The notes: a model not told the origin generated them from the letters alone. 56,084 nucleotides of DNA from Clostridiales bacterium (GCA_003537755.1 DPQS01000008.1:11704-67787), one strand, 5' to 3'. Counted from the stretch's first letter, positions 4,833 to 36,244 are shown. A program made the numbers and translations.

Positions 4833-4839
4833 GATAAAA

Positions 4840-5206: not shown

Positions 5207-5218
5207 TTGTCACGAGTT

Positions 5219-6046: not shown

Positions 6047-6060
6047 ATTTAGTTGAATTG

Positions 6061-6118: not shown

Positions 6119-6279
6119 GCATACGTATCGTATTATTTATTACAATTAACAGTAGTAATCCTATGTTGTAAATATTTTTGTTGTTTGAGTATACGGTTGG
6201 CGACAGGGCGGAGTTTGTGCGTCGAAAGTTTCGTTTCGGATATGTAAGCGCAGATGTTTTTCCGTAGTAAACAAGTGCG

Positions 6280-7110: not shown

Positions 7111-7238
7111 GTTTACAGTATATCACACGCAGCGGAAAAATTCAACAAAATAACTAAATAACATAACAAAACTGCTAAATATGGCGAAAAATTACCTACT
7201 ATTTGTCGGTTTTGATACTATAAACGAAATTTGACACG

Positions 7239-7247
7239 TGGTATAAT
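7239..7247 (+). promoter_or_regulatory. extended -10 promoter element upstream of the GH20 gene
   Basis: TGGTATAAT at 7239-7247. There is no good -35 at the proper spacing (the TTGACA at 7231 is too close). Confidence 0.4.
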
Positions 7248-7377
7248 GTTTACGTAAACGAAAAGTGTCACCGAAAGACTATTCTTAGCGGTTAAGTAAC
7301 GATTTGTTTGCTTATAACTGCCCCTATCGGCAAGGTTTTGCCGAAAAGGTGACGCTTTGGTTTCCGAGGAAGAAAAA

Positions 7378-8970: not shown

Positions 8971-9020
8971 GTGACGGAAAATTCGATCGGTCTTTTGAAA
9001 ACAATGGAAGAAAGCGTAAT

Positions 9021-20200: not shown

Positions 20201-20479
20201 CTTGCTAAGGGAACGGCAAGCGGCAAAAACATAGTATTCTACGTGTATCGTCCCGACGCCGCAAGCGATGCTTTTTTGTACTTTGCAGGACAAAACAACG
20301 TGTGGACGTCCACGGACAAAACGTCGGTGACAATTTCTGCCGACGGTTGGACAAGAGTGGAATTTGCGGCAGAGGACGTTGTAAATGCCGATTGGACAAC
20401 ATATTGGTATATTTATCTCAAAGACAAGAATGTTTCGGAAGAAAGTGGTTGGCTGATAAGTGACATTTACGCCTATTAA
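17267..20479 (+). CDS. 1070-aa surface lipoprotein of unknown family (beta-sandwich-like modules separated by helical linkers)
   Basis: Lipobox LTFAAC after a GGAGG SD. Recurrent modules occur, such as EAVMYVYNPTEYQLQY...W...EWNKISF and KNIVFYVYRPDAAS...GWTRVEF. No catalytic motif recognised. Confidence 0.65.
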   Translation: MNKKNNIVCALIVLVFVVTCLTFAACDKKDDNIVPPAPADPTLITSFENVDDLYALTAIEIAPNDEYKLGVNSDKNHVSDGEASLRYTFASGGSHLFCQYIADSHLSDLDVTKLSAVSLDFFNTSDTEQIVTLSVTTSSGAALFSKQQSLSPNAKTTVVYDELGSFSYKRKANVAGFSFRFDVESPVTIYVDNMRVTLGASDVPPEDFNAFTEGIVNVPEQPVTTETLDQNIAFLDAVGYARQLYDGLVDKTTAKAANVQLLKKYETLANGYAALYTPRNDTDIVDKWEYGVGLTVGTDVDKDYGAMWSIVVNAKRDGEQSLRFTDVSVDGFGEAVMYVYNPTEYQLQYSLSGGWQSFGAERGKLSQGEWNKISFNASLVENDTVGSLFMIVSRMENGVRMPFDGVFGFSAIYGVPASIVAKPIIDEIATLPVVEEIGLTNKAEVGTVRAHYDNLSRSAKAAVTNYKKLSEAENKIADIEAQTLDDKISVLVATEVTQANAAVCFDKTVELYNEYRALSNLAYGKVTKIGELNTFKKYLDGYLPTIVKDMTDNLPSADLADFPKVVDKLNQILQLFDLLDEEDRQNIDVDKLAKYKSMASDYALLYDFTDDNLGKISITTDFGNAWQGTMTTQTDVDYGNVLVCDVKGGHAGDFSRNAEFRVRDTSVKTAKYEKIVFYVYCPIDQAMFRCYPSNWKNPYDVKLSANAWNKIEVDASLFVDGTLDGMFFLFISKEGTQPVGVWKVSDFFGYVDRETTNKLVSGFVDVVNALPETAQLTLADEAMVNQATELYRQFKPYCINYISQAVLNKYKRAVDKLAELKQASVLDKLTSMVNDLTENSGGEEVYAALYYYTSLSKALQKQVDEAVVSKLINMVETSGVKFAAALDADVRNFGANYDFPRQLSKLKVLSDIINGLSDEVYALLSTETSTTISALNKIGKKYAVVANVGGDVVVDEQYGNAYRLTVKPEAPEQNNLLTLAKGTASGKNIVFYVYRPDAASDAFLYFAGQNNVWTSTDKTSVTISADGWTRVEFAAEDVVNADWTTYWYIYLKDKNVSEESGWLISDIYAY

Positions 20480-20543: not shown

Positions 20544-23500
20544 ATGAACAAAAAACTTTCACTGTTAATTTGTTTGGCGGTACTTGCGGTATGTTTGTTC
20601 GGGGCGGTGGCGTGCGAGATGCACGAACACGACTACGTGGAACACGCCGCTGTTGTCGCAACATGCGACAAGGCAGGCAACGAATTGTACTACACTTGCA
20701 ACGGTTGCGACAAGTTGTTTGACAAAGACAAGCAGGAAATCGCATCTGTGCCGACAATCGAAGCCAAGGGACATGTTTACAACCAACACCCCGCCGTCAG
20801 TGCAACATGTACGGCGGACGGTAACGAGTTGTATTACACGTGCGACGTTTGCAAAAAGATTTTCGACAAAGACAAGAATGAAATCGATTTAGTTCCAACG
20901 GTAACCAAGGGGGAACACGCCTACAAGGAAGTTGCAGCGAAAGAGCCGACTTGTACTGAGGCAGGCAACGAATTGTACTACACGTGCGAAGGCTGCAACG
21001 GTTTGTTTGACAAGGACAAAAAGCCCATTGCCGAAATACCTGTGATTCCTGCCAAAAACCACGCGTATCACAAAGTGGAAGAAAAGGCCGCTACATGTGA
21101 AGCCGAAGGAAACCAAGAGTATTACACATGCGACAACGGATGCGGACAATTGTTTGACAAAGATAAAAAGGAAATAACCGCAATTCCGTCTATCCCTGCA
21201 AACGGGCATAAGTATGTCAAGCATGACGCGGTTGCCGCCACTTGCGAAATTGACGGTAATGAGGCATACTTCTCTTGTGAAAACTGCACAAAGCTGTTTG
21301 ATGTCGACAAAAAGGAAATTGAAAAAATCGTCGTAATACCCGCAACGGGACACGCATTCGGCTGGGAAAAAGACGAAGCTAACCATACGGCGGAATTGAA
21401 ATGTATACACGACGGTTGCACTAAGAGTAAAGGTACGATAAAAACGAGGCTTGGCGAGGAAGACCGCTTGATTGTCGATTACGACAGTGACGGTAATTTG
21501 ACCTACGACCTTAACAAATTCGGACAGGGTTTGTTTGCCGTCAACGTCAGTTTTGACAACAAGACGATTGTTTTTGAAAATGCGCAAGCCGATACAATGA
21601 CCGTTGGCATACAGCAATTGTTTGCGCACTCGGTAAAAATGGGCAAAGTGTCGGTAACCATTTCCGTTAAAATGGATGAAGGACCTACGATTTACGTAGA
21701 CGCGCCAATTACTCTTGCCAAACTGATAAACAACGTTGACGACCTGATTGCGATTCGTCCTGTCGTTATCGACGGTAGAGCAACCGTTACGGGCGGTGTT
21801 GTGACGGAACAAGACGGCCATAAAATTGTCACTCGTTATTACTATTTGCTTACATCCGATTTTAACGGCAAAACTCGCACGGAGGAAACAAGCGTGTTTG
21901 GCGAAGGCATTGCCGACACCGGCTACACGAGCGGTGACGCAAAGAGCGGTTTTGTAGGCGTGTTTGACGGAAACGGTCATACTATCAAAAACTTTACGCT
22001 TAACGTGCGCGGATTCTTCGGACATGTGGGCGGCGGTACTATCGACAACGTCACGTTTGAAAACATCGTGTTAAACAATGCCGACAGCGCAGTTTTTGGT
22101 AAGTTGATGGATGCGACCGTGACAAACGTTACGATCAAAAATGTGGAAACAGCAGTTAAACTGTCGGATACGTCGGGCATTGTGGCTTATCACGAAATAT
22201 TCGGTAGTAAGATAAACAAGTTGAACATCGACTTGACCGACGGAAAAGCCGCAGGACATATTTTTGCAAGGCAACTTACCGACGGAACGGGCGAGTGGAA
22301 AGCAAATGATTTCAGCGATATTGTAGTTAAAACCAATTACGACTTAAAGTTGTCACTTACTGCAACTCAGGCTTTGACGGACAACATTAGCGGCGTTTCG
22401 GTAAAATTCAATCCGTTTACCGTGGCTAAACCCGCCGCAGACCAAACTACATTCTACTACACCGGACACCAACTGACGTACAACGTCACGGAAAACGCAT
22501 TGTACACGGTGTCGGGCAACAAACAAACGGAAATAGGTTCCTACACGGTTACGGTAACGCTTAAACCCTACGACGGACTGACTTGGGAAGACGGTACAAC
22601 CGCCGAAGTGACTTTTACTTTTGAAATCGTGGAAATGACGGATTCCGCCGCTGCGGACCTTGCACAAGCGTTTGCAAACAAAGTGACCGCACTCAACGGA
22701 CAATTGCTGTTGCCGCGCGACAAAATGGCGGTGGAAGGGCTTGTTGCCGACTACGAAGTGTTGCACGACAAGGTAAAAGCGTTGCTTACCGACGTCAAGA
22801 CGGCATTGGACGGAATGAAAGCGCAAGCCGACAAGTATACGCAGTTGGAAGTGGTGTTTATCGATTGTATTCGTACCGCACTAAAAGATTACGAAAAATA
22901 TTACATCGTATTTAACAATCACACCGACGCGGAAATCAGCGTTTTCTTGGGCGGAAATACAACAAACGGCAAATGGGAACAAACCAATCAGACAAAAATA
23001 GCGGCTAACACTTTGGCACAAATTGACTATCCCTCCGTGTATGCGGAAGCCGGAAATATTTACATTTATGTAAACGGTGTCGATATAAACAGCGGTAGCG
23101 GATATGTATTCTTTGTATACGGCTACTTGGATGCGCAAGCAAATGTCGAAGCTCTTAAAGCATTTACCGACGCTTTGAACGCATTTGAAACGGGCGCTTT
23201 GACGATTGCAGACGAAGCAAAAGTTGTTGCGGCTCGAACTGCATACGACGCCTTGTCTGCATTTGTCAAAAAACAAGTAACCGAGGAACAACTGACAAAA
23301 TTAGTTAATGCGGAAAATGAAATCCTCGTTGCTAAGAATAAAGCCGCGGCAAAGACCGTTGCGGACATGATTGACGCTCTTACAAACGACAGCACCGCCG
23401 AGGAAGTGGTTGCGACAAGCAATGCTTACGACAATCTGACCGCCGCGCAAAAGGCATATATTTCCGAGGCTCAGTTGGCTGCATTGCAAGCACAGGTAAT

Positions 23501-24437
23501 GCGTGTGGAAGAAGCCGTAGTGCAAGCCAAAGCCGACACGTTCAAAGCAAAAGTGGACGCGCTCGGTACGCCGACATTCCCCAAGGATAAACATGCCGTG
23601 GAAGCATTGGCAGCGGAATACAATGCATTGGAAGAAACGGTACAAGCAAAGTTGACGGAAACAAAAGCGAAGTTGGACGGATATGTCCAAGAGGCGGCAA
23701 AATACGTAGAGTTGGAAGCGACATTCGGTAGCGACAGAATTATAAGCACTTTCTCCGGGTATGACGAGTATTACCTTGTAATTTACAATCCGAAGGATAC
23801 GGCTGTCAATTTCTACTATTCCGGCACTGCCAGCAGTTGGGCAGCTTGCGGACAAACGACTTTGCCAAGCAAGAGTTACACTCAAATCATTTATGATAAG
23901 CGTTTCGTATCGGCGGGCGATGCGTATGTATATGGTGACAACGCAACGATTAACTTCAACGATACCGAAAGTGGCTGGATTTGCAATGTTTACGGCAGAA
24001 AAAACGAGGCTGGTGCGGAAGTCGTTGCTTTGTCTGTAAATGGAACGACAGATGACCCGACACACGGAAAAGTGCTTTTGACTGATGTAAAGAAACCCTC
24101 CGATGAAGAATGGGGACACGACAATGGCGGATACCTTATAAAATGGGGTTCTATGACTGTCACACAAATTGCCCAACTTAAAAAGTTCGACAATGTGTAT
24201 GTGTATGTATACAACCCGGCTGATGTGGCTGTAGGCTTCTATTTTTCTGATAATGTTAGTTGGGCGGCACTTGATAGAACCGTTATCGCTGCCAAAAGCT
24301 GGGCAAAAATTTCATTGTCTCAATTACTTGCACTGGATAATGGCTTTACGACTGTCTATGTTAATGCCGAACAAAATACCGAGGGCTTTGTTTATGAAGG
24401 TTGGATGATTTCCGATTTCTACGGCACTGCAAAGTAA
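20544..24437 (+). CDS. 1297-aa surface lipoprotein with N-terminal Cys/His tandem repeats and modules shared with the preceding protein
   Basis: Lipobox FGAVAC. Five ~48-aa repeats sit at the N-terminus. Later modules (YYIVFNNHTDAEISVF, YYLVIYNPKDTAVNFYY, VYVYVYNPADVAVGFYF) echo those of 17267..20479. Confidence 0.65.
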   Translation: MNKKLSLLICLAVLAVCLFGAVACEMHEHDYVEHAAVVATCDKAGNELYYTCNGCDKLFDKDKQEIASVPTIEAKGHVYNQHPAVSATCTADGNELYYTCDVCKKIFDKDKNEIDLVPTVTKGEHAYKEVAAKEPTCTEAGNELYYTCEGCNGLFDKDKKPIAEIPVIPAKNHAYHKVEEKAATCEAEGNQEYYTCDNGCGQLFDKDKKEITAIPSIPANGHKYVKHDAVAATCEIDGNEAYFSCENCTKLFDVDKKEIEKIVVIPATGHAFGWEKDEANHTAELKCIHDGCTKSKGTIKTRLGEEDRLIVDYDSDGNLTYDLNKFGQGLFAVNVSFDNKTIVFENAQADTMTVGIQQLFAHSVKMGKVSVTISVKMDEGPTIYVDAPITLAKLINNVDDLIAIRPVVIDGRATVTGGVVTEQDGHKIVTRYYYLLTSDFNGKTRTEETSVFGEGIADTGYTSGDAKSGFVGVFDGNGHTIKNFTLNVRGFFGHVGGGTIDNVTFENIVLNNADSAVFGKLMDATVTNVTIKNVETAVKLSDTSGIVAYHEIFGSKINKLNIDLTDGKAAGHIFARQLTDGTGEWKANDFSDIVVKTNYDLKLSLTATQALTDNISGVSVKFNPFTVAKPAADQTTFYYTGHQLTYNVTENALYTVSGNKQTEIGSYTVTVTLKPYDGLTWEDGTTAEVTFTFEIVEMTDSAAADLAQAFANKVTALNGQLLLPRDKMAVEGLVADYEVLHDKVKALLTDVKTALDGMKAQADKYTQLEVVFIDCIRTALKDYEKYYIVFNNHTDAEISVFLGGNTTNGKWEQTNQTKIAANTLAQIDYPSVYAEAGNIYIYVNGVDINSGSGYVFFVYGYLDAQANVEALKAFTDALNAFETGALTIADEAKVVAARTAYDALSAFVKKQVTEEQLTKLVNAENEILVAKNKAAAKTVADMIDALTNDSTAEEVVATSNAYDNLTAAQKAYISEAQLAALQAQVMRVEEAVVQAKADTFKAKVDALGTPTFPKDKHAVEALAAEYNALEETVQAKLTETKAKLDGYVQEAAKYVELEATFGSDRIISTFSGYDEYYLVIYNPKDTAVNFYYSGTASSWAACGQTTLPSKSYTQIIYDKRFVSAGDAYVYGDNATINFNDTESGWICNVYGRKNEAGAEVVALSVNGTTDDPTHGKVLLTDVKKPSDEEWGHDNGGYLIKWGSMTVTQIAQLKKFDNVYVYVYNPADVAVGFYFSDNVSWAALDRTVIAAKSWAKISLSQLLALDNGFTTVYVNAEQNTEGFVYEGWMISDFYGTAK
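20622..21350 (+). repeat. five in-frame tandem repeats of ~144-150 bp (48-50 aa) encoding an H...TC...GN.LYYTC..C..LFDKDK.EI...P mini-domain
   Basis: Aligned by eye: aa 27-76, 77-124, 125-172, 173-221 and 222-269 of the 20544 ORF. A sixth degenerate copy follows (HAFGWEKDEANHTAELKCIHDGC). Confidence 0.85.
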
Positions 24438-24483: not shown

Positions 24484-24556
24484 ACTAAATTGTAAGTTTT
24501 TCGCCAGACGTCGAGTTTGTCGGCGTTTGTCAAAGCACTTGACAATCAACAAGCTA

Positions 24557-24585
24557 TTGAAAACAACGTGCTTGTATGGTACAAT
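24557..24585 (+). promoter_or_regulatory. promoter of the GH38 operon
   Basis: TTGAAA (24557-24562), 17-bp spacer, and an extended -10 TGGTACAAT (24577-24585). Confidence 0.55.
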
Positions 24586-24621
24586 TACTTTACGACAATT
24601 TTGTATCGGAGTTTTGGAATA

Positions 24622-27600
24622 ATGATTACACCGAATATCGAAGAAAAACTTTCTACCGTTTGTAGTAAACTTAACGCATTGCAACAGGTTGCCAAAATCG
24701 ATTTGGACGTAGTTTACACCCCGTGTGACGCCGAGTGCCGCCACACATTGCCCGTCAAACGCACCGATTGGCAACCGTTTGTCCACCCGTACTATCTGTT
24801 TGAACAAAACAAATACTATTGGTTCCGTGCCAAGTTTACCGTGCCGAAGTTGCAGGCGCACCAAAAAGCATATTTGTGCGTGGAAACTTTTATCGGCGGC
24901 GTGGCAAGTACAATTCGTCCGCAGGGATTGCTGTACCTCAACGGAAAGGAAGTCTGCGGCATAGATATCAAACATACCGATGTATTGCTTGACGGCGCAG
25001 GCGAATACGAAATGTACTTGCATTTTTACACGCACGTGTTTGGTACGGGCTTTCCGTTGTACTTCAGTGTTAAAATTCGCGATGAGCGTATTACGCAAGC
25101 ATATTACGACTTTAATGTGCCATTTTCTGCAGTTAAACTGCTAAACTTGCGTACTAACGAATTGACTCGCAGTCTTACCGTGTTGGAAAAAGCAACAAAT
25201 ATCGTGGATTTTCGCAATCCCTATTCCGAAGAGTTTTATGTTTCTGTCGAGCAAGCATGCGATTACTTGAAGCGCGAGTACTACGGTGTGTCGGGTGGCA
25301 GTTTTAATACGGCTTTATGTGTGGGGCATACTCACATAGACGTTGCGTGGTTGTGGAATTTGGAACAAACTCGGCAAAAGGTCGAGCGCAGTTTTTCGAC
25401 GGTCTTGAAACTTATGGACGAGTACCCCGAATACCGCTTTATGATGTCGCAGCCGCAACTTTTTGCCTATCTCAAACAGACCGATTCCGAATTGTTTACT
25501 CGCGTAAAACAACGCATACAGGAAGGTCGTTGGGAGGTGGACGGCGCAATGTGGCTGGAAGCCGACACCAATCTGACTTGCGGCGAAAGCCTTGTGCGAC
25601 AAATGATGTACGGGCAAAGATTTTTCCCCGACGAGTTTGGGATTGACTGTACGTGCGTGTGGCTACCCGACGTATTCGGTTACAGCGGACAACTTCCGCA
25701 AATAATGGCAAAAAGCGGCATAAAACGTTTTGTTACGGCAAAAATAGGTTGGAACGACACCGACCGCTTCCCGTATGATGTATTCGATTGGTACGGTATC
25801 GACGGTAGCAAGGTGTTTGCGTATTTGTTGTCTACGTCCGACACCGATCCGCGCAACGGCGTTTACGACCGTACATACACAAGCTATTGCGAGCCGCTAA
25901 CGGCAAAAAGCGCGCTCGGCACATGGAATCGTTTCCAACAAAAGGACTTTACCGACAGCGTAATCATGAGTTACGGATACGGCGACGGCGGTGGCGGCCC
26001 GACGAGAGAAGATTTGGAACGTCAACGTAGACTTTCTTGCGGTCTATTGGGGATACCGAAAACAAAAATTTCAAGTTTACACGAAGCGTTGGACGTGGTG
26101 GAAAGCAATTTCCGTAGGTCGTGCGAGGAACTCAGACGTGTGCCGAAGTGGCACGGGGAGTTGTATTTCGAGTTTCATCGCGGTACATTGACAAGCGTTC
26201 CACGAGTAAAGAAGAATAATCGCATGGCGGAAATCGCCTTAATAAACGCCGAACAGTTGTCCGTAATGGCAAACAAGCTTTGCGGCGTCTTGTATCCTGC
26301 GGAACAAATCGAACGCAACTGGAAAGTGGCATTACTTAATCAATTCCATGATATTTTGCCCGGTTCGGCGGTGGAAGCAGTTTACGCGGACAGCGACAAG
26401 CAGTATGCCGAGTTGTTTGCCGAAACGGGAAAAATTACCAAAAACGCATTGCAATCTATTGCCGAAAATGTTGACGCGGAAGGAAAAACGGTGGTATTCA
26501 ACAATACGCCGTTTACTGCCAACGGCACGGTAACATTGAACGGAAAAACGCATATTGTGCGTGATATTTCTGCGCACGGATACAATGTTATTGACATCGA
26601 TTGCAGTGACCGAAGTTGCGGCGATAAAGTGCAAGTCGGCGACAAAATGTTGCAAAATTCCTACTACGTACTAACCTTTTCAAACGACGGAAGCGTTGTA
26701 AACCTGCTTGACAAACGTAATAACAGGCAAATCGTACCCGACGGGCAACAGCTTAACCAATTTGTCGCTTACGATGACATGCCGTTTGAGTACGACAATT
26801 GGGAAATGGCACCTTACCACAAGCAAAAGAGTCGGACATTATCGGAAAACGCCACCTTTGCCCCAATTGACGACGGGGACAGAAAGGGTTTTGAGATTGT
26901 CAAAAAGTACGGCAACTCTACAATCACGCAACGTGTCTGGTTGTACAATGACGGTATCGAACGCATCGACTTTGACACCGATGTGGTTTGGCGTGAAAAG
27001 GGACAACTGCTCAAAGTGCGCTTCCCGTTGGACGTAGTGTGCGACAACGCTCGTTACGACATTCAGTTCGGAAGCGTTTTACGTAGCACTCATGACAATA
27101 CAAGTTGGGACAGCGCGCGATTCGAATCGGTTGCGCACAAGTGGGTGGATATGTCCGAAGGTGGTTACGGCGTTGCGCTGCTCAACAACGGCAAATATGG
27201 TTTCGGGACGGAATACAACGTGTTGACGATGACCATTGTCAAAAGCGGCAGCTTTCCTTACGACGGCGCAAGCGATGTGGTGCCGAGCTTTACTTATTCG
27301 CTCTTGCCACATGCAAAAGACTACACAAACGGCGTAGTAAGTGCCGCTTACGTGCTTAATAATCCGTTTACTGTCGCAAAAGGCGGTAGCGGACAACTGC
27401 CGCAAAACTTTTCGTTGGTATCGACAAACGACGGCGGTCTAGTGTGCGAAACGGTCAAAAAAGCTGAGTGCGGTAAAGGCACTGTGGTGCGCGTGTACGA
27501 AGCCAACGGAGCACGACACAATGCGACCATTACATTTGGAGTGCCTGTCGATAAGGCGTTTTTGTGCGATCTCAATGAAAAAGAAATACAACAACTGACT

Positions 27601-27666
27601 ACTCAAAACAACGGCGTAAATATTACAATCAAACCATTTGAAATATTGACGATAAAGGTATTATGA
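24622..27666 (+). CDS. GH38 alpha-mannosidase
   Basis: GGAG SD precedes ATG 24622. The track ORF start at 24517 would include the promoter. GHTHIDVAWLW, EYPEYRFMMSQPQLF and the ~1014-aa length are typical of bacterial GH38. Confidence 0.85.
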   Translation: MITPNIEEKLSTVCSKLNALQQVAKIDLDVVYTPCDAECRHTLPVKRTDWQPFVHPYYLFEQNKYYWFRAKFTVPKLQAHQKAYLCVETFIGGVASTIRPQGLLYLNGKEVCGIDIKHTDVLLDGAGEYEMYLHFYTHVFGTGFPLYFSVKIRDERITQAYYDFNVPFSAVKLLNLRTNELTRSLTVLEKATNIVDFRNPYSEEFYVSVEQACDYLKREYYGVSGGSFNTALCVGHTHIDVAWLWNLEQTRQKVERSFSTVLKLMDEYPEYRFMMSQPQLFAYLKQTDSELFTRVKQRIQEGRWEVDGAMWLEADTNLTCGESLVRQMMYGQRFFPDEFGIDCTCVWLPDVFGYSGQLPQIMAKSGIKRFVTAKIGWNDTDRFPYDVFDWYGIDGSKVFAYLLSTSDTDPRNGVYDRTYTSYCEPLTAKSALGTWNRFQQKDFTDSVIMSYGYGDGGGGPTREDLERQRRLSCGLLGIPKTKISSLHEALDVVESNFRRSCEELRRVPKWHGELYFEFHRGTLTSVPRVKKNNRMAEIALINAEQLSVMANKLCGVLYPAEQIERNWKVALLNQFHDILPGSAVEAVYADSDKQYAELFAETGKITKNALQSIAENVDAEGKTVVFNNTPFTANGTVTLNGKTHIVRDISAHGYNVIDIDCSDRSCGDKVQVGDKMLQNSYYVLTFSNDGSVVNLLDKRNNRQIVPDGQQLNQFVAYDDMPFEYDNWEMAPYHKQKSRTLSENATFAPIDDGDRKGFEIVKKYGNSTITQRVWLYNDGIERIDFDTDVVWREKGQLLKVRFPLDVVCDNARYDIQFGSVLRSTHDNTSWDSARFESVAHKWVDMSEGGYGVALLNNGKYGFGTEYNVLTMTIVKSGSFPYDGASDVVPSFTYSLLPHAKDYTNGVVSAAYVLNNPFTVAKGGSGQLPQNFSLVSTNDGGLVCETVKKAECGKGTVVRVYEANGARHNATITFGVPVDKAFLCDLNEKEIQQLTTQNNGVNITIKPFEILTIKVL

Positions 27667-29795
27667 CAACGAAATTTCAGCTTAAAAATCAATCGTTACT
27701 GTGCGTAAATATGTCGGCGGGGTGCTTCGATGACGTAATTGTACGCGGAAAGAAGATAAATTGCGGCAAAGTCGGTTTGTTTGCAGTCAAGCTTAGACGC
27801 CATGACGGCAGCGGTGTGATTGTTTCCGTCGATGACTGTGTTTTTATGGGATTCGACGGCAAAACGGCAACCTACTTTAACGACAATGTGGATATTGCGG
27901 TACATTTTTGCGTTTCACCCGACGGTGGCGCATTATTGTTGCGTGCCGACGTGTCTAACAAAACCGATTTGCTTGTCGAGTGGGTGGAGTTGATGTCCGT
28001 CTGTGTGGGTGGTAAACTACGTGACGAGCAAGGCGGTTCGGGTGCGATAGTGTATCCTTTCAACGAGGGCGGACTTGTTACTAATATGGCTTTTCGTGAA
28101 AGTATGCCCTACCGTTACGACGAACCGCGGTACCCGAGTAAAAGCGGCTATTCGATTTTTCCGAATATGATTTGTTCACAATTTTTAGCATACGTATCAC
28201 AAAATTGCGGACTTTACCTGGGTATGCACGACCCCCAACGCACGACAAAACATATTGATTTTTGCTACCGAGGGAACGACATTAAGTTGCAGTTGCGTAC
28301 TTTTTGCAACGTCGACTACGGGCAAAACTACGCGATGTCGTTTGACTGCGTAATGCAACCCTTTGTCGGTGATTGGCAAGATGCGTGCGAGATTTATCGC
28401 GATTGGTTTGAAAACAACTTGCCTACGGGATTGACCAAAATCGTTGCAAACAAAGATCTTCCCGATTGGTACCACAAGTCGCCCGTTACGGTTATTTATC
28501 CCGTCAGGGGACGTAAGGACACGGGAGACATGACTCCTAACGGCATGTATCCCTACGTAAACGGATTGTCGTTTTTGCAAGAAACGGCTACATCTACAAA
28601 CAGCCCCGTCATGGCACTCTTGATGCATTGGGAGGGCACTGCGCCATGGGCTCCGCCGTATGTTTGGCAACCGTTTGGCGGCGAGAAAAAGTTTGGCGAT
28701 TTTTTGCAACAGGCACATGACAAGCACATGCTTGTAGGGCTGTATATGAGCGGCATGGGCTACACGCTTAAAAGTAATGTTTTGCCCGATTACGACCGCA
28801 CTACGGATTTCGAACGCGACAACATTGCCGATATTGTGTGTGCCGACAGTGACGGAAGTAAGAAAGGTGTTATTTGTCCTCAACAACGCGTCGGGTACGA
28901 CCTTTGTCCTGCATGCGACAAAAGCAAACAAATTATGTCTGACGAAATCGGCAAATTGTGTAAGTTCGGCGTCGATTACGTTCAAGCGTTGGATCAAAAC
29001 CATGGCGGAGTAAGTTACTTTTGTTTCAGTGACAAACACGGGCATGTCCCTGCGCCGGGCAAGTGGCAAGCGGAGGAAACATGCAAAATGCTCGACCGCG
29101 TCCATACCTACGGAGCTTTGTTGGGTTGCGAATCGGCAGCGAGCGAACCGATGATAGCACACCTGCCGTACAGCGACAGCCGTTTTCAACTAAATTTGTA
29201 CGTCGGTACGCCTATACCCGTTTACAGTTATATTTACCACGAGTATGTCAACAATTTTATGGGCAATCAAGTGTGTGCCATGCTAAACAAGGTGGAGGAA
29301 AGTTACACCTACCGCCTTGCTTACAGCTTTACTGCGGGTGACATGCTGAGCCTTGTTACGCTTGGCGACGGCAAGGTGGAGTACAGCTGGGACGATTGGA
29401 TTGCGCCTCACGACAAAACCGTCGACAAGCAAGTTGCGTATGACTTCATCCGTACGCTCAACGGTTGGCGACAAGGCGCGGCGGGAAAGTATTTGCACCT
29501 CGGGCGAATGACCAAGCCCGTGAGGGTGACTTGCGGCAAACAGCACTTTACCCTTGACGACGGCAGTGCCTACACTCCCGCCGAAGTACTCACAACGGCG
29601 TATAAACTCGGCAAAACGACATTGCAGTTTGTCGTCAATTACAATAGGTACGAAGTGACTGTAAAGTTGCCCCAAACATTGGGCGGCTATCTCGACAACA
29701 ACCTAACGGAACAATTTGACCCGACCGACACGATGACGATTGCGCCCTTGTCTGTGGTGGCGTTGAAGCTGGACGATTCTGCAAAAAAGTTGTGA
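27663..29795 (+). CDS. 710-aa enzyme-like protein of unassigned family (possible novel glycoside hydrolase; vaguely DUF6259-like)
   Basis: The ATGA overlap with the GH38 stop suggests translational coupling. There is no signal peptide. Conserved-looking blocks include LYLGMHD, HWEGTAPWAPPYVWQPFGG and QALDQNHGG. The family is not recognised with confidence. Confidence 0.55.
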   Translation: MTTKFQLKNQSLLCVNMSAGCFDDVIVRGKKINCGKVGLFAVKLRRHDGSGVIVSVDDCVFMGFDGKTATYFNDNVDIAVHFCVSPDGGALLLRADVSNKTDLLVEWVELMSVCVGGKLRDEQGGSGAIVYPFNEGGLVTNMAFRESMPYRYDEPRYPSKSGYSIFPNMICSQFLAYVSQNCGLYLGMHDPQRTTKHIDFCYRGNDIKLQLRTFCNVDYGQNYAMSFDCVMQPFVGDWQDACEIYRDWFENNLPTGLTKIVANKDLPDWYHKSPVTVIYPVRGRKDTGDMTPNGMYPYVNGLSFLQETATSTNSPVMALLMHWEGTAPWAPPYVWQPFGGEKKFGDFLQQAHDKHMLVGLYMSGMGYTLKSNVLPDYDRTTDFERDNIADIVCADSDGSKKGVICPQQRVGYDLCPACDKSKQIMSDEIGKLCKFGVDYVQALDQNHGGVSYFCFSDKHGHVPAPGKWQAEETCKMLDRVHTYGALLGCESAASEPMIAHLPYSDSRFQLNLYVGTPIPVYSYIYHEYVNNFMGNQVCAMLNKVEESYTYRLAYSFTAGDMLSLVTLGDGKVEYSWDDWIAPHDKTVDKQVAYDFIRTLNGWRQGAAGKYLHLGRMTKPVRVTCGKQHFTLDDGSAYTPAEVLTTAYKLGKTTLQFVVNYNRYEVTVKLPQTLGGYLDNNLTEQFDPTDTMTIAPLSVVALKLDDSAKKL

Positions 29796-29823
29796 TACCC
29801 GACAATGTAGAAAGGTGAAAAAT

Positions 29824-31236
29824 ATGATTCGTTATCTGTATCCGACAAAAATTAAAGAAGTGGAAAACGTTATAAACGCAGACGGTTTATTTCACAAAAA
29901 AGACTTGCAAATAGGGCTTAACGAACCGGACATTGTTAAGTTTCAGCCGAATTCCGCGATTGTGTTGGACTTCGGAAAGGAAATAAGGGGCGGCGTGCGG
30001 ATATTGACATACGAAACGCAAGACATCAAGTGCGTTCGCATTCGCATACGATTCGGAGAGTCGCTTTCGGAGTGCTTTGCCGAACTCGGTGAGAAAAATG
30101 CCACAAACGACCACTCGCCGCGCGATATCGAAGCGGATTTGTCTGCTTGGTCGGATTTGTGTTTCGGCGACACCGGATTCCGCTTTGTGCGGATCGATTC
30201 GCTGTCCGACGGGTGGTTTTGCGTAAAATCGATTGTAGCAAAGTCGTACGAACTAAACAAACAACCTATCTACTCCTATGACGGCAACGATAAGCTTGTT
30301 TCGGCCATATTCGACGCTGCCAAACGGACGATAGACTTGTGTTCAGTCGGGCAATACGTGTACGACGGTATTAAGCGCGACAGACTGGTGTGGGTAGGTG
30401 ATATGTATCCCGAGATGTTGGCTCTTACTACATTGTACGGTAGCTTCCCCGCATTGGAACGCTCGCTGAATTTTGCTAAGAAACAGTATCCTCTTCCGCA
30501 ATTTATGTACAATATGCCGACGTATTCCTTGTGGTGGATTTTGCTTGTTTGCGATTACTACGACAAAACAAGCAAGAAGGAATTTTTGTCCGACAAACTC
30601 GAGTATATGTTTGAACTGTTGAAACTTTTTGACAAAAGAATCGGCGTTGACGGCAAACTTGATTTGAACAATTGTTTTGTTGATTGGCCAAGCGTCGGCA
30701 GTGTAGACGAGTACATCGGTGCAGTATTTATAGCAATTGCGGCTTACAAAAAGGGTATTGCTTTGCTTGCAAAATTCGGATTCGATGTCAGTTCGTTTGA
30801 AATGTCGCTATCGGCATTATTCCAAAACGAGTTTGCCGTCTGCGAACTGAAACAAGTTGTCGGATTGAAATATTTTGCGCTCGGACAGATTTCCGACGAT
30901 GATTATGCTTTGCTTGTGCGTGACGGTGCGCAAGGATTTTCCACTTTTATGAGTTGGTTTATTTTGGAAGCAATAGCCTCTCGTGACAAAGCTCTTGCGG
31001 TTAAACTTATGAAAGAGTACTACAGCGGGATGTTGGCGGTAGGAGCAACAACTTTTTTTGAAGACTTCGATTTGAGGTGGTTGCAAAACTCGTCGGTGCT
31101 TGACGAATTGCCGAAACAAGGACGGAAAGATATTCACGGCGATTTCGGCGCGCATTGCTACGTGGGGTTTCGCCATAGTTTGTGCCACGGGTGGTCAAGC
31201 GGCGTGATAGCGTTTATCAAAACTCATTGTGAATGA
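29824..31236 (+). CDS. six-hairpin (alpha/alpha)6 glycoside hydrolase, GH78 alpha-L-rhamnosidase-like
   Basis: YDGIKRDRLVWVGDMYPE resembles the D-x-x-RDR-x-x-W-x-GD block of the bacterial rhamnosidase six-hairpin domain. The C-terminal HGWSSG also fits. Confidence 0.5.
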   Translation: MIRYLYPTKIKEVENVINADGLFHKKDLQIGLNEPDIVKFQPNSAIVLDFGKEIRGGVRILTYETQDIKCVRIRIRFGESLSECFAELGEKNATNDHSPRDIEADLSAWSDLCFGDTGFRFVRIDSLSDGWFCVKSIVAKSYELNKQPIYSYDGNDKLVSAIFDAAKRTIDLCSVGQYVYDGIKRDRLVWVGDMYPEMLALTTLYGSFPALERSLNFAKKQYPLPQFMYNMPTYSLWWILLVCDYYDKTSKKEFLSDKLEYMFELLKLFDKRIGVDGKLDLNNCFVDWPSVGSVDEYIGAVFIAIAAYKKGIALLAKFGFDVSSFEMSLSALFQNEFAVCELKQVVGLKYFALGQISDDDYALLVRDGAQGFSTFMSWFILEAIASRDKALAVKLMKEYYSGMLAVGATTFFEDFDLRWLQNSSVLDELPKQGRKDIHGDFGAHCYVGFRHSLCHGWSSGVIAFIKTHCE

Positions 31237-31283
31237 GTGCGTATCGCAACACATACAACAATAAAACTAAATAAATGCAACCC

Positions 31284-31328
31284 AAAGCAAGGTTTTGCAC
31301 CGATTGGCGCAGAGCCTTGCTTTTTTTA
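31284..31328 (+). terminator. intrinsic terminator closing the first glycan locus
   Basis: AAAGCAAGG (31284-31292) pairs with CCTTGCTTT (31315-31323), and the T-run continues to 31327. Confidence 0.65.
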
Positions 31329-31470
31329 TGTCTAAAAAAAGCGTAATTTCATACTTGAAGTCTGTCGGACGATAAGCACCGTCCAACAGGACTTGAACCT
31401 CGAACCAAGGAAATAAAAACCGTGAGAAAAGCTCAAAATCGTGGTGTCGCTTAACTTGTACACCCTGCTC

Positions 31471-31499
31471 TTTACATTCGTATAGATTTATGCTATAAT
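31471..31499 (+). promoter_or_regulatory. promoter of the WYL-DUF2971 operon
   Basis: TTTACA (31471-31476), 17-bp spacer, TATAAT (31494-31499). Confidence 0.55.
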
Positions 31500-31537
31500 A
31501 TGGTTAACTAAAATGGGAGAGGTATAGGAGTCGGTCG

Positions 31538-32539
31538 ATGAAGCAAGAGAAAGCGTACAAAATAAAACTCATAAAAATCCTTGAGATACTGCGCCAAGAT
31601 TCGGACGAAGACCATTACATAGAGTCCACGGAAATATTGTCCAAACTCGCCACTATGGGCATAGAGTGCGACAGGCGAACGCTGTACGGAGATATTGACG
31701 TTCTCAATGATTTCGGGTACGAAGTATTGTGCGAGAAGAACCCCGGCAAGCCGAATAAGTATTGCGTGGTGGATCGCAGCTTTGACGTCCCGGAACTTCG
31801 CATTCTTATGGACGCAGTGCAGGCATCGAGTTTTATTACACCGAGCAAAACCGAGGTCCTATTAGATAAAATAGCCGACCTTGGCGGTAGCCACCGTGCG
31901 GAACTCTTGCGGAGTAATATCGTAAAATTCAATACGACAAAGAGCGCAAACGAAAGCATTTTTTATTCGATAAGCGAAATCAACTTGGCGATAGAGAACA
32001 ATAAGAAAGTTTCGTTTGAATACTTCGACTTCAACTCAAAGCATGAGCGAGTATATAGACGAAACGGGAAACGGTATTTCGTCAATCCGCTTGCCACAAT
32101 TTATGACGATGACAACTACTACCTGATATGCTACTACGGAAGATTTGAGGGTGTGGTGCATTATCGCATAGACCGCATGGACCATGTCGAAATGGTCGTT
32201 AATCAACCTATAGACGTATATAAAGGCGAGCCGATCGATTTGAAAAGGCACAAAAAGACCTTGTTCGGAATGTTCCAAGGCGAAGAACAGTTGGTAGAGT
32301 TCCAAGCCGACGCAAGCATTTTAGATCCGATATTTGATATCTTCGGAGATAAGGTGGAAATCACCCCGGACGAGAACTGCAAACTGCGTTTCAAAGCGGC
32401 GGTGCGGTTGAGTCCAACGTTTTACGGTTGGTGCTTGTCGTTTGGAGATAAACTGCAAGTGGTCGGACCTGACGAAGTGGTAGAAAAAATAAAAGAGTAT
32501 GTTATAAATTTAGTTAAAATATATCAAGGTGATTTATGA
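31538..32539 (+). CDS. HTH-WYL-domain transcriptional regulator (BrxR/CapW-like architecture)
   Basis: AGGAG SD is present. The N-terminal winged-HTH-like region reads KLIKILEILRQDSDEDHYIESTEILSKL. The WYL-type core reads YYLICYYGRFEGVVHYRIDRM. A ~100-aa C-terminal extension follows. Confidence 0.8.
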   Translation: MKQEKAYKIKLIKILEILRQDSDEDHYIESTEILSKLATMGIECDRRTLYGDIDVLNDFGYEVLCEKNPGKPNKYCVVDRSFDVPELRILMDAVQASSFITPSKTEVLLDKIADLGGSHRAELLRSNIVKFNTTKSANESIFYSISEINLAIENNKKVSFEYFDFNSKHERVYRRNGKRYFVNPLATIYDDDNYYLICYYGRFEGVVHYRIDRMDHVEMVVNQPIDVYKGEPIDLKRHKKTLFGMFQGEEQLVEFQADASILDPIFDIFGDKVEITPDENCKLRFKAAVRLSPTFYGWCLSFGDKLQVVGPDEVVEKIKEYVINLVKIYQGDL

Positions 32540-33492
32540 CGCAGTCAAAAGAAATCAAAACTATTAACGATAAAATGAAAGGTAATACTTCCACTGTTCC
32601 AAGAACATTATTCAAATACCGTCCGTTTGATGAACACACATACGATATGCTTGAAAATGAATATTTATACTTATGTCCAGCAAAAAAATTAGACGATCCA
32701 AGTGAATGTGTGGTCTCTTTTGATGTTCAAGACTATATTGATATACAGACAAATCAACTAACAAAATATTGTGTTGAGCAAATTATGGAATCAATACGGG
32801 ACCATACAGGTGATGTGAACTTTAGACGGATCCAAAGTATCATTGCAAGCATAATGACTCCAGACGGCTTAGTAAAAAGAAATTGGTTATTGGATGCATC
32901 GTTTGAATTACAAGAACTTGCTCCGAATGCCGATATTGTTTCCTTGGTAAATATGCTTGGGAATATTCCTGAGAGTATTAATGATAAACAAGTGCGAGAG
33001 CAAATAGAGCAGTTGTTTATAAGGGCGGCAAAGGCTCGCGAACAATTTGGCGTTTGTTCATTAACAACAGAAAAAAACGACAGTGCTATGTGGAAAGATT
33101 ATGCAAATGACGGTACTGGATATTGTGTTGAATACGACTTGTTAAATTATAAATATTTAGAATTGCTGCTTCCCGTGGTTTATAATGAACAGCGTGAAAA
33201 TAATGTTTTAATGAATATCGTCTGTGATTTTATAGGTCAAATGATTATTGGCATGAGCAATGGACAAATTGATGCAGATCGTTCGAGATATTTGAGAATG
33301 TTTTTGGCGAAGGATTTAAAATGGCAATATCAAAAAGAGTGGAGATTGATTGGAAATGCTGGGCAAAAAATACAAGCGCCTTCAATTAAGGCTGTTTATT
33401 TGGGGAAAAATGTTCAAGCGGTAAATGCAAATAAAATGGAAAAATTTTGTAATGAGAATCAAATATTAATGAAAAAAAGTGGTGGAGAATAA
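32536..33492 (+). CDS. DUF2971-family protein
   Basis: ATGA overlap with the regulator's stop. Three hallmark blocks are present: LFKYRPFDEHTYDMLENEYLYLCPAKKLDDPSEC, GVCSLTTEKNDSAMWKDYANDGTGYCVEYD and KDLKWQYQKEWRLIG. The gene is very AT-rich. Confidence 0.75.
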   Translation: MTQSKEIKTINDKMKGNTSTVPRTLFKYRPFDEHTYDMLENEYLYLCPAKKLDDPSECVVSFDVQDYIDIQTNQLTKYCVEQIMESIRDHTGDVNFRRIQSIIASIMTPDGLVKRNWLLDASFELQELAPNADIVSLVNMLGNIPESINDKQVREQIEQLFIRAAKAREQFGVCSLTTEKNDSAMWKDYANDGTGYCVEYDLLNYKYLELLLPVVYNEQRENNVLMNIVCDFIGQMIIGMSNGQIDADRSRYLRMFLAKDLKWQYQKEWRLIGNAGQKIQAPSIKAVYLGKNVQAVNANKMEKFCNENQILMKKSGGE

Positions 33493-33496
33493 ATCT

Positions 33497-34372
33497 ATGA
33501 CAATCGCAGATATTATTCAAATTATTTTAGGGGTACTGTCGCTAATAGCAACGGTTGCGGTATCGATTGTTATTGCTCGTGTAGAAACTAAAAGGGCAAA
33601 GAGACAGCATACGGAAGCAATACAGCAGCAAGTCAAAGAGTTTGTGATGGACAATGAGTCGGAGATAGATTATTTGCCATTATGCGTCTTTGCGAATGCA
33701 GTATCGCCGTATGCGGCAAATAAACGGCAAATATATAACCGTTTCAATAGGTGTACGGAAGAAGTCCAAATTGAAATACTGCGCCACCAAAATATTCCGA
33801 TTGGACTAATTAAGGATAAGAACGTTCTTGATAAATGTCTCGATTCCTTCGATGAACAGGCATTGGAAACCGAACTATGGGAAAGGTCGTGGCTTTATGA
33901 CGGCGGGAAGTATTTCCACAGAGCGATTGACTATTATAGGGAAATGGCGGTAGATGATGACAATCCTCACATTTTCGAGATACCAAGACTTAATGAGTCG
34001 CTCGCAAAGGCATTCCCGGACTTCAAGGCGGACTTAACTCTTTATATGGATAGATACTTGGAATTTGTTCTTCGTGATCAAGACGATACGAAAGACTTGC
34101 CAGAAAAACTTCCGCAAATTCCGCCCTTTACAGCTATAGATAGTTTTGTGGGAGTTGGCAACTGTGATGAGCCGACATTGTGTTTTTGGATGATGCGGTT
34201 CATTACAAGCGGTTGTTTGGCATTTTGGCATCATAAATTGGTTGCCGACCGTGATGCCGATTGGAGACAATTGAACATCGGAGATGGTGTGATAGAAACA
34301 TACGAAGATATGTATTACGATACATTGATGATGCTATACACGACTTATGCTAATATTAAGGAGGAAAATTGA
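33497..34372 (+). CDS. membrane-anchored protein of unknown function (one N-terminal TM helix plus a ~265-aa acidic domain)
   Basis: GGTGGAG SD precedes ATG 33497, 4 nt after the upstream stop. The TM helix reads IIQIILGVLSLIATVAVSIVIA. No recognisable domain. Confidence 0.65.
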   Translation: MTIADIIQIILGVLSLIATVAVSIVIARVETKRAKRQHTEAIQQQVKEFVMDNESEIDYLPLCVFANAVSPYAANKRQIYNRFNRCTEEVQIEILRHQNIPIGLIKDKNVLDKCLDSFDEQALETELWERSWLYDGGKYFHRAIDYYREMAVDDDNPHIFEIPRLNESLAKAFPDFKADLTLYMDRYLEFVLRDQDDTKDLPEKLPQIPPFTAIDSFVGVGNCDEPTLCFWMMRFITSGCLAFWHHKLVADRDADWRQLNIGDGVIETYEDMYYDTLMMLYTTYANIKEEN

Positions 34373-34450
34373 AGATTTTTATTGAAATAGTAACAGCTCT
34401 ATGGCAAGCCTTTTGGGGAACGATGAAAGCGTTCGGCACGGCCATTTGTT

Positions 34451-34693
34451 TTGGAACAATTATGCGGTTTAGACGATATTTCTTACAGACCCATGATGGG
34501 AGAATATATTATCTATTATCGCGGCAAAATCGTCGGCGGAATATATGACGACAGATTGCTTGTAAAGAAAACGAAATCCGCCTTGGAACTAATGCCTGCC
34601 GCCATTTGTGATTTTCCGTACGAGGGGGCGAAAGAAATGCTGCTTGTAGACAAAATCGACAACAAAGAGTTCCTTAAAAAAAAAACTATTTGA
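34451..34693 (+). pseudogene. truncated TfoX_N-domain gene fragment
   Basis: LDDISYRPMMGEYIIYYRGKIVGGIYDDRLLVKKTKSALELMP...PYEGAKEMLLVDKIDNKEFLKK matches the TfoX N-terminal domain. The usual ~15-20 N-terminal residues are missing (in-frame TGA at 34424-34426, and only a TTG start is available). The ORF ends right after an A-homopolymer. Confidence 0.6.
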
Positions 34694-34890
34694 TGCAATG
34701 TACAAAGAATTATCTTTATGGTAAAATATATTATGTAATGAGTTTACAAAAGAAAAATGCGTTTGGCTGCATTTTGCCGGAATGTCTGTGCGCCGGATGA
34801 TGGTTTTGCAATGTGCTGCAAAAACGACGATTAACAAAAGCGAGTTGAAAGTTGCAATAGATAATAAATAAAATCAAGGAGGAAAACAGA

Positions 34891-35547
34891 ATGAAAACAA
34901 TTACGGTAAAAGGGGTAGGCAACGTGCAGGTGAAGCCCGATCTTGTTGTGGTGTCGATGAATCTTGAAACAATAGACGCGGAATACGGCGCGGCAATGGA
35001 ACGTGCCGCGGGAAAAATCGAAAAGCTGGACGACGCACTCGGCAAGGTGGGCTTTGAAAAACATTCCGTCAAGACGACGAATTTCGACGTGCATACGGAA
35101 TACGACAGCGTTAAAAACAAGGACGGCAAGTATGAACGCGTTTTTCTCGGATACGAGTGCAGCCACAGGCTTAAGGTAGAGTTCGATTTCGACGTGAAAC
35201 GTCTTGCCGACGTGCTGTCCGCGCTTGCCGCATGCGATGTCGCACCCGAGTTGTCCGTTGCATTTACGGTCAAAAATCCCGAAGCCGTTTCGGCGGAGCT
35301 GTTGCGCAGTGCAACGAAAAACGCCTGCGAAAAGGCGGAAATTTTGTGTAACGCATCCGGCAGAAAACTTGGCGATTTGCTGTCTATCGACTACAACTGG
35401 GGCGAACTTAACGTGTATTCTGATACGGGATACGGTGTAGAACGCGCATGCCTTATGAAGGCAAGTCCGTCGTTGCAAAACATCGACATAGAGCCCGACG
35501 ACATCGATACGAGAGATTCTGCCACATTTGTTTGGGAAATCGCCTGA
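34891..35547 (+). CDS. SIMPL/DUF541-domain protein
   Basis: AAGGAGG SD is present. MKTITVKGVGNVQVKPDLVVVSMNLE... and the ~218-aa length are typical of SIMPL (DUF541) proteins. Confidence 0.7.
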   Translation: MKTITVKGVGNVQVKPDLVVVSMNLETIDAEYGAAMERAAGKIEKLDDALGKVGFEKHSVKTTNFDVHTEYDSVKNKDGKYERVFLGYECSHRLKVEFDFDVKRLADVLSALAACDVAPELSVAFTVKNPEAVSAELLRSATKNACEKAEILCNASGRKLGDLLSIDYNWGELNVYSDTGYGVERACLMKASPSLQNIDIEPDDIDTRDSATFVWEIA

Positions 35548-35716
35548 CGTCACGAAAAAACGTATACGTATGCAAAAATCGTGGAAATTTTGCCGATATT
35601 TTTGCGAAAAAGCGGCAGTAAATCGTGGCTGTAAAACCGCACACATTGCCGCATGTCGGCAAAAATAAGAGAGAAAAAATGAAAGTAATTGCAAAAAAAT
35701 CTACAGGCAACGCAAT

Positions 35717-36244
35717 ATGGGTCGGCTTTTGGCTGTTCTGCTAATAATCGGCATGGTGATGATAATTGTTTCTTTGTTTATGCCGTCCGAAGAACGTGAA
35801 TCAAATGCATACTATGTGCTTGATGCATTTCTGCTTATTGTCGGTATTGTAGGAGTAATTGCGTGCCTTGTGTGGGTGCACGCCGTCAGAAGTTTGCCCA
35901 AGGTGTTGATTTCGCTTGACGACAACGACAACCTTGTGTTGTACGACGGAAGGGTGATTCCAATTGCGTGCGTGTTTAACGTGACTGCGGAAAACTACCG
36001 TTCAGGCATCTACCGCGGTTTCAAGCAGACTTCGGGCTGTATTACATTGTGTGTTACGGAAAGTTTTTGCAGCAGCAACGCGATATGCGACGGCGTTAAC
36101 CCTGACGCACATCCTGTTTACGATGAAATTGAAATCACACATGTTGCATTTTGTGAAGAAGTGCAGACTACGATTGTAAATCTTGTCCGGCAGGTTAGAA
36201 ACGGACAAAAGGCGTCGCTTCCCGAAACATACGATTTTTGCTAA
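35717..36244 (+). CDS. small membrane protein with two N-terminal TM helices, unknown function
   Basis: The TM helices read LLAVLLIIGMVMIIVSLF and AFLLIVGIVGVIACLVWV. The SD is weak, so the start is uncertain. Confidence 0.45.
   Translation: MGRLLAVLLIIGMVMIIVSLFMPSEERESNAYYVLDAFLLIVGIVGVIACLVWVHAVRSLPKVLISLDDNDNLVLYDGRVIPIACVFNVTAENYRSGIYRGFKQTSGCITLCVTESFCSSNAICDGVNPDAHPVYDEIEITHVAFCEEVQTTIVNLVRQVRNGQKASLPETYDFC

Follow-up and report, generated by a model that had tools for sequence, protein, structure and literature searches.

A WYL-WCX regulator heads two separable cargo genes in a mobile cassette of a gut Clostridiales genome, a probable mini defence island

BrxR represses by binding to inverted repeats at its promoter and is found at the head of varied defence islands; 48% of BrxR homologs were co-localised with defence systems (PMC9122601). 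CapW, another regulator with the winged helix-turn-helix (wHTH)-WYL-WCX organisation, is a sensor of single-stranded DNA (ssDNA) (PMC11662680). Aristaios is a validated single-gene system of Lactococcus plasmids in which a DUF2971 protein of 316 amino acids (aa) acts by abortive infection (PMC11381338). The DUF2971 family has been predicted to consist of ADP-ribosyltransferases that resemble DarT and AbiGi and has been placed in the H-Y-E clade, nearest to DarT, AbiGi and Tox-ART-HYD1 in profile comparisons and with E-x-E as motif III for the family as a whole (PMC12522546). PrrC provides the precedent of a gene within a type IC restriction-modification (R-M) locus that senses the inhibition of R-M (PMC12707154). 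Here, we analysed a 56,084-nucleotide stretch of DNA from a Clostridiales bacterium (GCA_003537755.1 DPQS01000008.1:11704-67787), referred to as the window, in which three same-strand genes at 31471-34372 encode a WYL regulator (gene 1), a DUF2971 protein (gene 2) and a membrane-anchored protein of an undescribed family (gene 3). The locus is read, with a probability of about 0.62, as a mobile mini defence island of ~3 kb (~31443-34448) in which the WYL regulator heads two independent cargo genes. The regulator and gene 2 are of known kinds, and gene 3 is the new element.

The separability of the two cargo genes was seen when the window was compared with related loci (L numbers). The blastn homology with one of them, L010, was found only at 31443-32503 and 33484-34448, and gene 2, which the homology skips, is therefore a precise insertion or deletion of ~980 bp that separates the regulator from gene 3. 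The proteins of genes 1 and 3 are 89% and 93% identical, respectively, to their counterparts in L010. The WYL gene is followed directly by gene 3, without DUF2971, also in the more distant L012, where the gene 3 protein is 59% identical, and the reciprocal arrangement of WYL and DUF2971 without gene 3 was found in L085/86, L148/162 and L163. The gene 3 loci were dereplicated to 56 clusters and those of the DUF2971 subfamily to 49; by raw counts, and within a distance of 2.5 kb, a DUF2971 gene accompanies gene 3 in 3 of its 56 clusters, and gene 3 accompanies DUF2971 in 6 of 49. In the same database, 296 clusters of the DUF2971 subfamily were recovered vs 46 of gene 3, about a six-fold difference. 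Furthermore, other 260-290-aa neighbours of DUF2971 genes embedded in R-M operons gave no match to the gene 3 hidden Markov model (HMM) even at E <= 10.

The initial annotation of this locus had taken genes 2 and 3 as one new defence module under a BrxR-like repressor, which could be, for example, a two-part system of a DUF2971 effector and an anchored sensor, antitoxin or other partner. The coupling of the two genes across 4 nucleotides (nt) would suit such a system, and so would the trio being kept in many human-gut contigs (L017, L078, L082-84, L087-93, L164, L165/166), the recurrence of the pair in reversed order in type I R-M operons of distant relatives, and the 50% identity of those DUF2971 proteins that adjoin gene 3 homologs, in a family otherwise very diverse. 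However, each gene occurs alone under the same regulator and operator, the partner is nearby in only the few clusters counted above, and the DUF2971 subfamily is much the larger of the two. In addition, Aristaios works as a single gene (PMC11381338), and that gene 2 could likewise suffice alone has indirect support in a subfamily that mostly lacks gene 3 nearby; another gene parts genes 2 and 3 in L004, and the difference in their G+C content points to separate origins. A two-part system is thus unlikely, and genes 2 and 3 are read as families that share a niche and a host range and not as an obligate two-component system.

The cassette is horizontally mobile and patchily distributed. Its homology to L010, L017 and L078 is confined to ~31320/31443-34448, the flanks differ in every locus, and its copies adjoin serine recombinases or type I R-M genes or lie on IMG/VR contigs; this recurrence with unrelated flanks bears out the horizontal acquisition proposed in the initial annotation. 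When an empty insertion site was looked for, none was found, the contigs with the exact SIMPL flank (both human-gut) all carrying the cassette, and no record was found for the GTG-start flank protein; the insertion borders are therefore drawn from cassette-to-cassette comparison only. On the right, the homology ends inside a fourth gene, which the initial annotation had overlooked together with the palindrome described below. This gene is intact in L010 (4214-4441), L078 (8395-8619), L087, L095, L164 and L085/86, where it encodes 74-75 aa with two hydrophobic segments. The window keeps ~26 codons of it, with the frame continuing in unrelated flank DNA to 34548, and L017 and L091 keep ~8 codons.

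The coordinates of all these elements are collected in Table 1. ORF calling returned three same-strand open reading frames (ORFs) as one operon, and the junctions were read from the sequence. Genes 1 and 2 share an ATGA overlap (32536-32539), and the TAA stop of gene 2 (33490-33492) is separated by a 4-nt spacer from the ATG of gene 3. For gene 3, the mechanical ORF call was a GTG-started frame at 33479-34372, and the alignment of homologs favours the ATG at 33497. The gene order, the overlap and this start agree with what had been annotated initially, as does the low G+C content of gene 2, which is 34.0% against 43.6% in gene 1 and 41.1% in gene 3, 45.1% in the upstream gene, 50.7% in the downstream gene and 47.4% in the whole window.

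Table 1. Positions of the cassette elements, counted from the first nucleotide of the window.
Feature	Coordinates	Strand	Description
Left flank segment	31320-31442	+	Common to some cassette copies; terminator-like hairpin (31319-31342) and a second imperfect hairpin
Candidate operator	31443-31464	.	Imperfect palindrome GGTGTC-N9-GnACACC; ends 6 nt before the -35 hexamer
Promoter	31471-31499	+	Sigma-70 type, TTTACA-17-TATAAT with extended -10 TG; 11/12 matches
Gene 1	31538-32539	+	333 aa; WYL-WCX transcription regulator, probable N-terminal winged HTH
Gene 2	32536-33492	+	318 aa; DUF2971, PDC-S31/Aristaios family; predicted ADP-ribosyltransferase-fold effector; separately acquired
Gene 3	33497-34372	+	291 aa; transmembrane helix and acidic all-helical domain; undescribed family
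Remnant of fourth cassette gene	34369-34448	+	TTG start overlaps the gene 3 stop, after AGGAGG

The gene 2 product is a member of a known defence family, and a new chemistry is not supported for it. Its DUF2971 assignment in the initial annotation was supported by Pfam (PF11185; 4.8e-8, 34.7 bits against a cut-off of 22), and it matched the PADLOC candidate PDC-S31 (PDLC04990) over nearly its full length (residues 22-314, 1.4e-32) as well as phrog_1762 (3.3e-32). It shares with Aristaios the Pfam family and the length (318 vs 316 aa), a likeness drawn from family and length and not from direct alignment, and like the Aristaios/PDC-S31 proteins it lies on mobile DNA in Bacillota. Among 34 relatives of gene 2, the residues K27-Y28-R29, G195-Y196-C197-x-E199 and Q266-x-E268-W-R are invariant. 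The tyrosine of motif II and the [Q/E]-x-E of the predicted ADP-ribosyltransferase core are thus kept throughout the subfamily, and Y196 and Q266-x-E268 would be placed at the active site. Motif III reads Q-x-E here, vs the family-wide E-x-E (PMC12522546). In contrast to Aristaios, gene 2 sits under a WYL regulator and beside a second cargo gene, and its subfamily is most often embedded in type I R-M operons; a tblastn search of PLSDB with gene 2 gave no Lactococcus record even at E <= 10. A gene 2 profile gave no sequence match to solved structures in the PDB.

The published profile comparisons place DUF2971 nearest to DarT (PMC12522546), and the gene 2 protein, for which a good structure model was obtained (predicted local distance difference test score, pLDDT, of 86), differs from DarT in large helical inserts that part its core strands. 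Unlike DarTG, the cassette has no macrodomain antitoxin next to gene 2: neither gene 3 nor the small fourth ORF matches a macro or any other Pfam domain, and the gene 3 model has no fold match in the PDB. The initial annotation had expected new effector chemistry and could place DUF2971 in no named system. Neither expectation is supported, given the published classification of the family as predicted ADP-ribosyltransferases (PMC12522546) and the validation of Aristaios (PMC11381338), beside the PADLOC candidate. The idea of an undescribed system therefore fails in part, because genes 2 and 3 do not consistently co-localise and gene 2 falls within a named system. As a separate observation, the WYL cassettes of L085 (1662-2609) and L086 (1418-2365), in which gene 3 is absent and the small fourth gene is kept, have a DUF2971 gene broken up into two or three ORFs; the split gene is probably a pseudogene, which suggests ongoing decay or counter-selection of the effector.

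With good support, the gene 3 product is a candidate founder of a new family that is linked to defence and lacks a known fold. The single N-terminal helix and the acidic domain that could not be placed, both noted in the initial annotation, were confirmed, and no family match was found in Pfam, PADLOC, NCBIfam or PHROGs. The AlphaFold2 model is all-helical (pLDDT 89.8, predicted template modelling score 0.84), with a long N-terminal helix (residues 3-52) comprising the membrane segment and a stalk, followed by an acidic all-helical domain of about 240-250 aa (isoelectric point 4.5-4.7). This model had no structural neighbour in the PDB or BFVD (best PDB E = 2.3, template modelling (TM) score < 0.2), the gene 3 profile had no sequence match in the PDB, and no HEPN, HD or Fic signature was found when these were sought by eye among the conserved residues. 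The domain is predicted to be cytoplasmic, because the helix is followed by the basic stretch RVETKRAKRQH (positive-inside rule).

The first search for gene 3 homologs had returned 46 clusters, all metagenomic and without Pfam domains. A profile search of 1.84 billion representatives then returned 464 representatives at 50% identity, 363 of them at E <= 1e-10. Among the best 150 of the 464, 61 are membrane-anchored proteins of ~290 aa, and 42 carry instead of the anchor a soluble N-terminal extension of more than 100 aa, which falls into two homology groups and contains no Pfam domain. The others are partial or fragmentary (32), have a short N-terminus with no transmembrane helix called (9), have two N-terminal helices (5) or combine the anchor with a C-terminal membrane extension (1). 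When the 150-250-aa extensions of the long homologs were searched against Pfam, no domain was found, and our impression is that their first ~60 residues resemble an Xre-type HTH. In one metagenomic protein of 640 aa (P0218), a TIR_2 domain (1e-18) is fused N-terminally to the gene 3 domain. Furthermore, the type I R-M operons of L023 (7219-7983) and L024 (1166-1918) each carry a separate TIR gene immediately before the gene 3 homolog, and the two ORFs overlap in L023. The fusion and the adjacency together are a Rosetta-stone-type link of TIR to the gene 3 domain.

Both cargo families are found in defence-island surroundings. The gene 3 homologs come from 61 species-level genomes, all of gut-type Bacillota, and from four IMG/VR contigs. 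HsdS is encoded at position -1 in 10 of 52 dereplicated clusters and HsdR at position +1 in 10 of 54, and the stop of the gene 3 homolog often overlaps the start of hsdR by 4-11 nt. Type I R-M components were found at up to 2.5 kb from the gene in 24 of the 56 gene 3 clusters and in 27 of the 49 DUF2971 clusters. Further neighbours of gene 3 are PDC-S15, S57, S19, S02, S22, TIR, Mrr, Fic, KAP NTPase, Eco57I-type enzymes and DNA methyltransferases. In phage tail modules (L001-3, L009), the homolog is the next gene after that for the tape measure, other homologs lie beside paired serine recombinases on IMG/VR viral contigs (L079-81), others stand alone (L006-8), and one match came from a faecal phage record. 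These contexts, together with the PDC-S31 match of gene 2, agree with the defence-type cargo that the initial annotation had assumed.

The position of both families raised the possibility that the gene 3 product, and perhaps also that of gene 2, guards type I R-M in the manner of PrrC. It would be kept silent by the R-M complex and would set off abortive infection once a phage anti-restriction protein disables this complex, and the WYL cassette would be a secondary home that is independent of R-M. The relatives of both genes share with prrC the position between hsdS and hsdR, or lie beside hsdR, more often than any other and are often translationally coupled to hsdR. PrrC is a direct precedent (PMC12707154), and the TIR fusion and adjacency suggest that the gene 3 domain partners a suicide effector. 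On the other hand, the products of genes 2 and 3 resemble PrrC or RloC neither in sequence nor in domains, many members are found in phages, beside recombinases or alone, and the immediate neighbours of the window copy, which are the part of the window annotated for R-M, are glycoside-hydrolase, TfoX_N and SIMPL genes and not R-M genes. Type I R-M operons are, moreover, general landing sites for unrelated defence genes, and embedding in them is therefore by itself no proof of functional dependence. A guardian of this kind is considered quite unlikely for the cassette. A wider proposal, which we regard as doubtful, is that the gene 3 domain constitutes a new and fairly widespread family of immune sensors or regulators in gut Bacillota and their phages, in which interchangeable N-terminal outputs would be wired preferentially to R-M so that restriction failure or an anti-restriction factor leads to membrane- or NAD-based abortive infection, with DUF2971 as a frequent co-resident following the same logic.

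Two observations were made on the R-M operons themselves. In L004/L005, a 331-aa protein with a faint AbiTii match (6949-7944) lies between the gene 3 homolog and DUF2971 in the hsdS-hsdR slot and is a third passenger of this slot. In L012, the type I R-M operon just downstream of the WYL-gene 3 pair encodes an 805-aa HsdM-like methyltransferase (4659-7076) with an ADP-ribosylglycohydrolase domain (PF03747), an unusual fusion, and genes of the ADP-ribosylation type recur nearby.

Superinfection-exclusion proteins with a single N-terminal membrane anchor are known, and gene 3 has one such anchor. Gene 3 was therefore also weighed as a prophage-type superinfection-exclusion or moron protein that blocks DNA entry or a membrane step, as its homologs after the tape-measure gene, beside serine recombinases on IMG/VR contigs and in the faecal phage record would allow. 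Such a role is very unlikely, since the positive stretch after the helix predicts a cytoplasmic domain, ~40% of the full-length relatives swap the anchor for a soluble N-terminal domain and one swaps it for TIR, and most genomic copies are in R-M operons and not in prophages.

The gene 1 protein carries WYL (PF13280; 4.4e-9, 36.7 bits against a cut-off of 21.8, residues 146-219) and WCX (PF25583; 3.4e-6, 27.8 bits against a cut-off of 23.9, residues 274-321) and matches the PADLOC 'WYL' model (1.3e-22). Of the domains assigned in the initial annotation, the WYL core and the C-terminal extension thus passed the Pfam cut-offs, and the N-terminal HTH did not, HTH_11 giving E = 0.011 and 16 bits against a cut-off of 25. 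The architecture and the context therefore fit the BrxR/CapW-type wHTH-WYL-WCX family: the protein has about 330 aa, its gene stands at the 5' end of defence-type genes, and a palindrome lies beside its own promoter in an autoregulated-looking arrangement. The label 'BrxR/CapW-like' holds for this domain architecture and not for the sequence. A gene 1 profile searched against the PDB found DriD-type chains (7u02, 7tzv, 8tp8; ~1e-6) and PafC, with residues 177-323 aligned to WYL and WCX, with BrxR and CapW chains absent from the matches at E <= 10, and the single sequence gave no PDB match by phmmer.

The promoter described in the initial annotation was reproduced as the only site with 11/12 matches in a 5-kb scan (30800-35800). 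Weaker matches were no commoner than in shuffles, and the real support for the promoter is therefore its conservation, both hexamers being kept in 13 related cassettes in which the DNA further upstream is unrelated. The pattern of the palindrome occurs once in the window, with none expected from 100 shuffles, and was found in 19 of the 166 fetched loci, all 19 being WYL-cassette loci or copies of the window's own locus. In aligned cassettes it lies ~70-75 nt upstream of the WYL start. In L078, L084 and L148 it is perfect (GGTGTCCGC-AAAT-GCGGACACC) with different inner bases, and the homology with L010 starts exactly at its first position. The gene 1 regulator, itself read from this strong promoter, probably binds the palindrome and autoregulates the operon.

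Several points weigh against a mini defence island with two independent cargo genes. The pair of cargo genes recurs in reversed order, gene 3 then gene 2, between hsdS and hsdR (L013-16, L105, L107, L111), where the proteins have diverged to 50% (gene 2) and 33% (gene 3) identity; because the adjacency recurs in two arrangements with diverged sequences, some functional synergy between the two genes possibly exists. The neighbour counts given above are raw numbers, taken without a matched background or a genome-wide enrichment statistic. A Foldseek search with the gene 2 model gave a best E of 0.3, and DarT (target-normalised TM score ~0.3), Pierisin-1 and Tpt1 appeared only in the non-significant tail. 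The anti-phage phenotype of the three proteins is one that we infer. Finally, the palindrome sits upstream of the -35 box and not over the core promoter, in contrast to the BrxR site of E. fergusonii, which lies downstream of the -10. Given this position, and with the activator DriD among its nearest solved relatives, the regulator could itself activate and not repress. Repression is favoured by the near-consensus promoter, and activation is also compatible with the position of the palindrome.

The same position, typical of an activator site, and the kinship of the regulator with DriD-type proteins and PafC, which control DNA-damage responses, would also suit a locus with no defence role, namely a stress or DNA-damage regulon of a DriD-like WYL activator with two hitchhiking genes. 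This is extremely improbable, given that gene 2 matches both a defence-candidate HMM and a validated defence family (PMC11381338), that both cargo families are overwhelmingly found in R-M or defence neighbourhoods and on mobile DNA, and that the cassette itself is mobile and patchy.

For the mini defence island, the following course of action may be proposed. The WYL-WCX regulator bound at the palindrome would set the expression of the translationally coupled operon, and its WYL domain may sense an infection or DNA-damage cue such as ssDNA, by analogy with CapW, BrxR and DriD, upon which expression would rise. The DUF2971 enzyme would then carry out NAD+-dependent ADP-ribosylation of DNA or another nucleic acid, or of an essential protein, and bring about abortive infection; ADP-ribosylation is the most likely action because of the published family-level predictions and the phenotype of Aristaios. 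The gene 3 protein would act independently, most likely alone, as a sensor or effector at the inner face of the membrane. In its relatives, the same domain stands behind a soluble extension or TIR, and the genes occupy the slot of variable content in type I R-M operons, the ends of prophages and moron positions of tail modules.

The cassette is an example of single-gene defence units that are shuffled behind a portable head of regulator, operator and promoter, and defence genes are also exchanged between this WYL head and the hsdS-hsdR slot of type I R-M operons. The little-studied DUF2971/Aristaios family is hereby placed in human-gut Clostridia, most often inside R-M operons. The well-delimited gene 3 family is a tangible starting point from which a new anti-phage mechanism, and possibly a new kind of R-M guardian, may be discovered.

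The left end of the cassette differs among its copies. The blastn homology begins at 31320 with L017 and only at 31443 with L010, and in the alignment of promoter regions the left flank segment was found in L017, L087, L091 and L093 only. The hairpins in this ~120-nt segment include GCTTTTTTTA/TAAAAAAAGC, and it could represent a terminator with a recombination scar. A tRNA-derived attachment site was considered for the T-arm-like motif GGACTTGAACC at ~31390 and was rejected, as ARAGORN called no tRNA and Rfam gave no match in the segment nor elsewhere in 31000-35000.

The cassette is seated on a human-gut Bacillota chromosome between a glycoside-hydrolase gene on the left and a TfoX_N gene on the right, with chromosomal glycan-utilisation genes upstream and TfoX_N and SIMPL genes downstream. 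The TfoX_N gene is an 80-aa ORF at 34451-34693 (TfoX N-terminal domain, Pfam 2.9e-8) directly past the cassette border, and it may be the gene beside which the cassette inserted. Glycan-degradation genes are abundant at 7357-11180 and 24517-31236 and include a GH20 hexosaminidase, a lacto-N-biose phosphorylase, a GH38 alpha-mannosidase, DUF6259 and a rhamnosidase-like six-hairpin protein, a set consistent with a forager of gut mucin or milk glycans. Between them, a 1297-aa ORF (20544-24437) has no significant Pfam domain and a sub-threshold RYYR-CCHC match, and the large ORFs at 14836-17256 and 17267-20479 adjoin it. A second stretch of lower G+C (41-43%) at 4001-8000, starting directly after tRNA-Pro (4755-4831), holds a 279-aa ORF (5207-6046) and a PocR/AraC-type regulator (6280-7110, minus strand) and may be another acquired segment.

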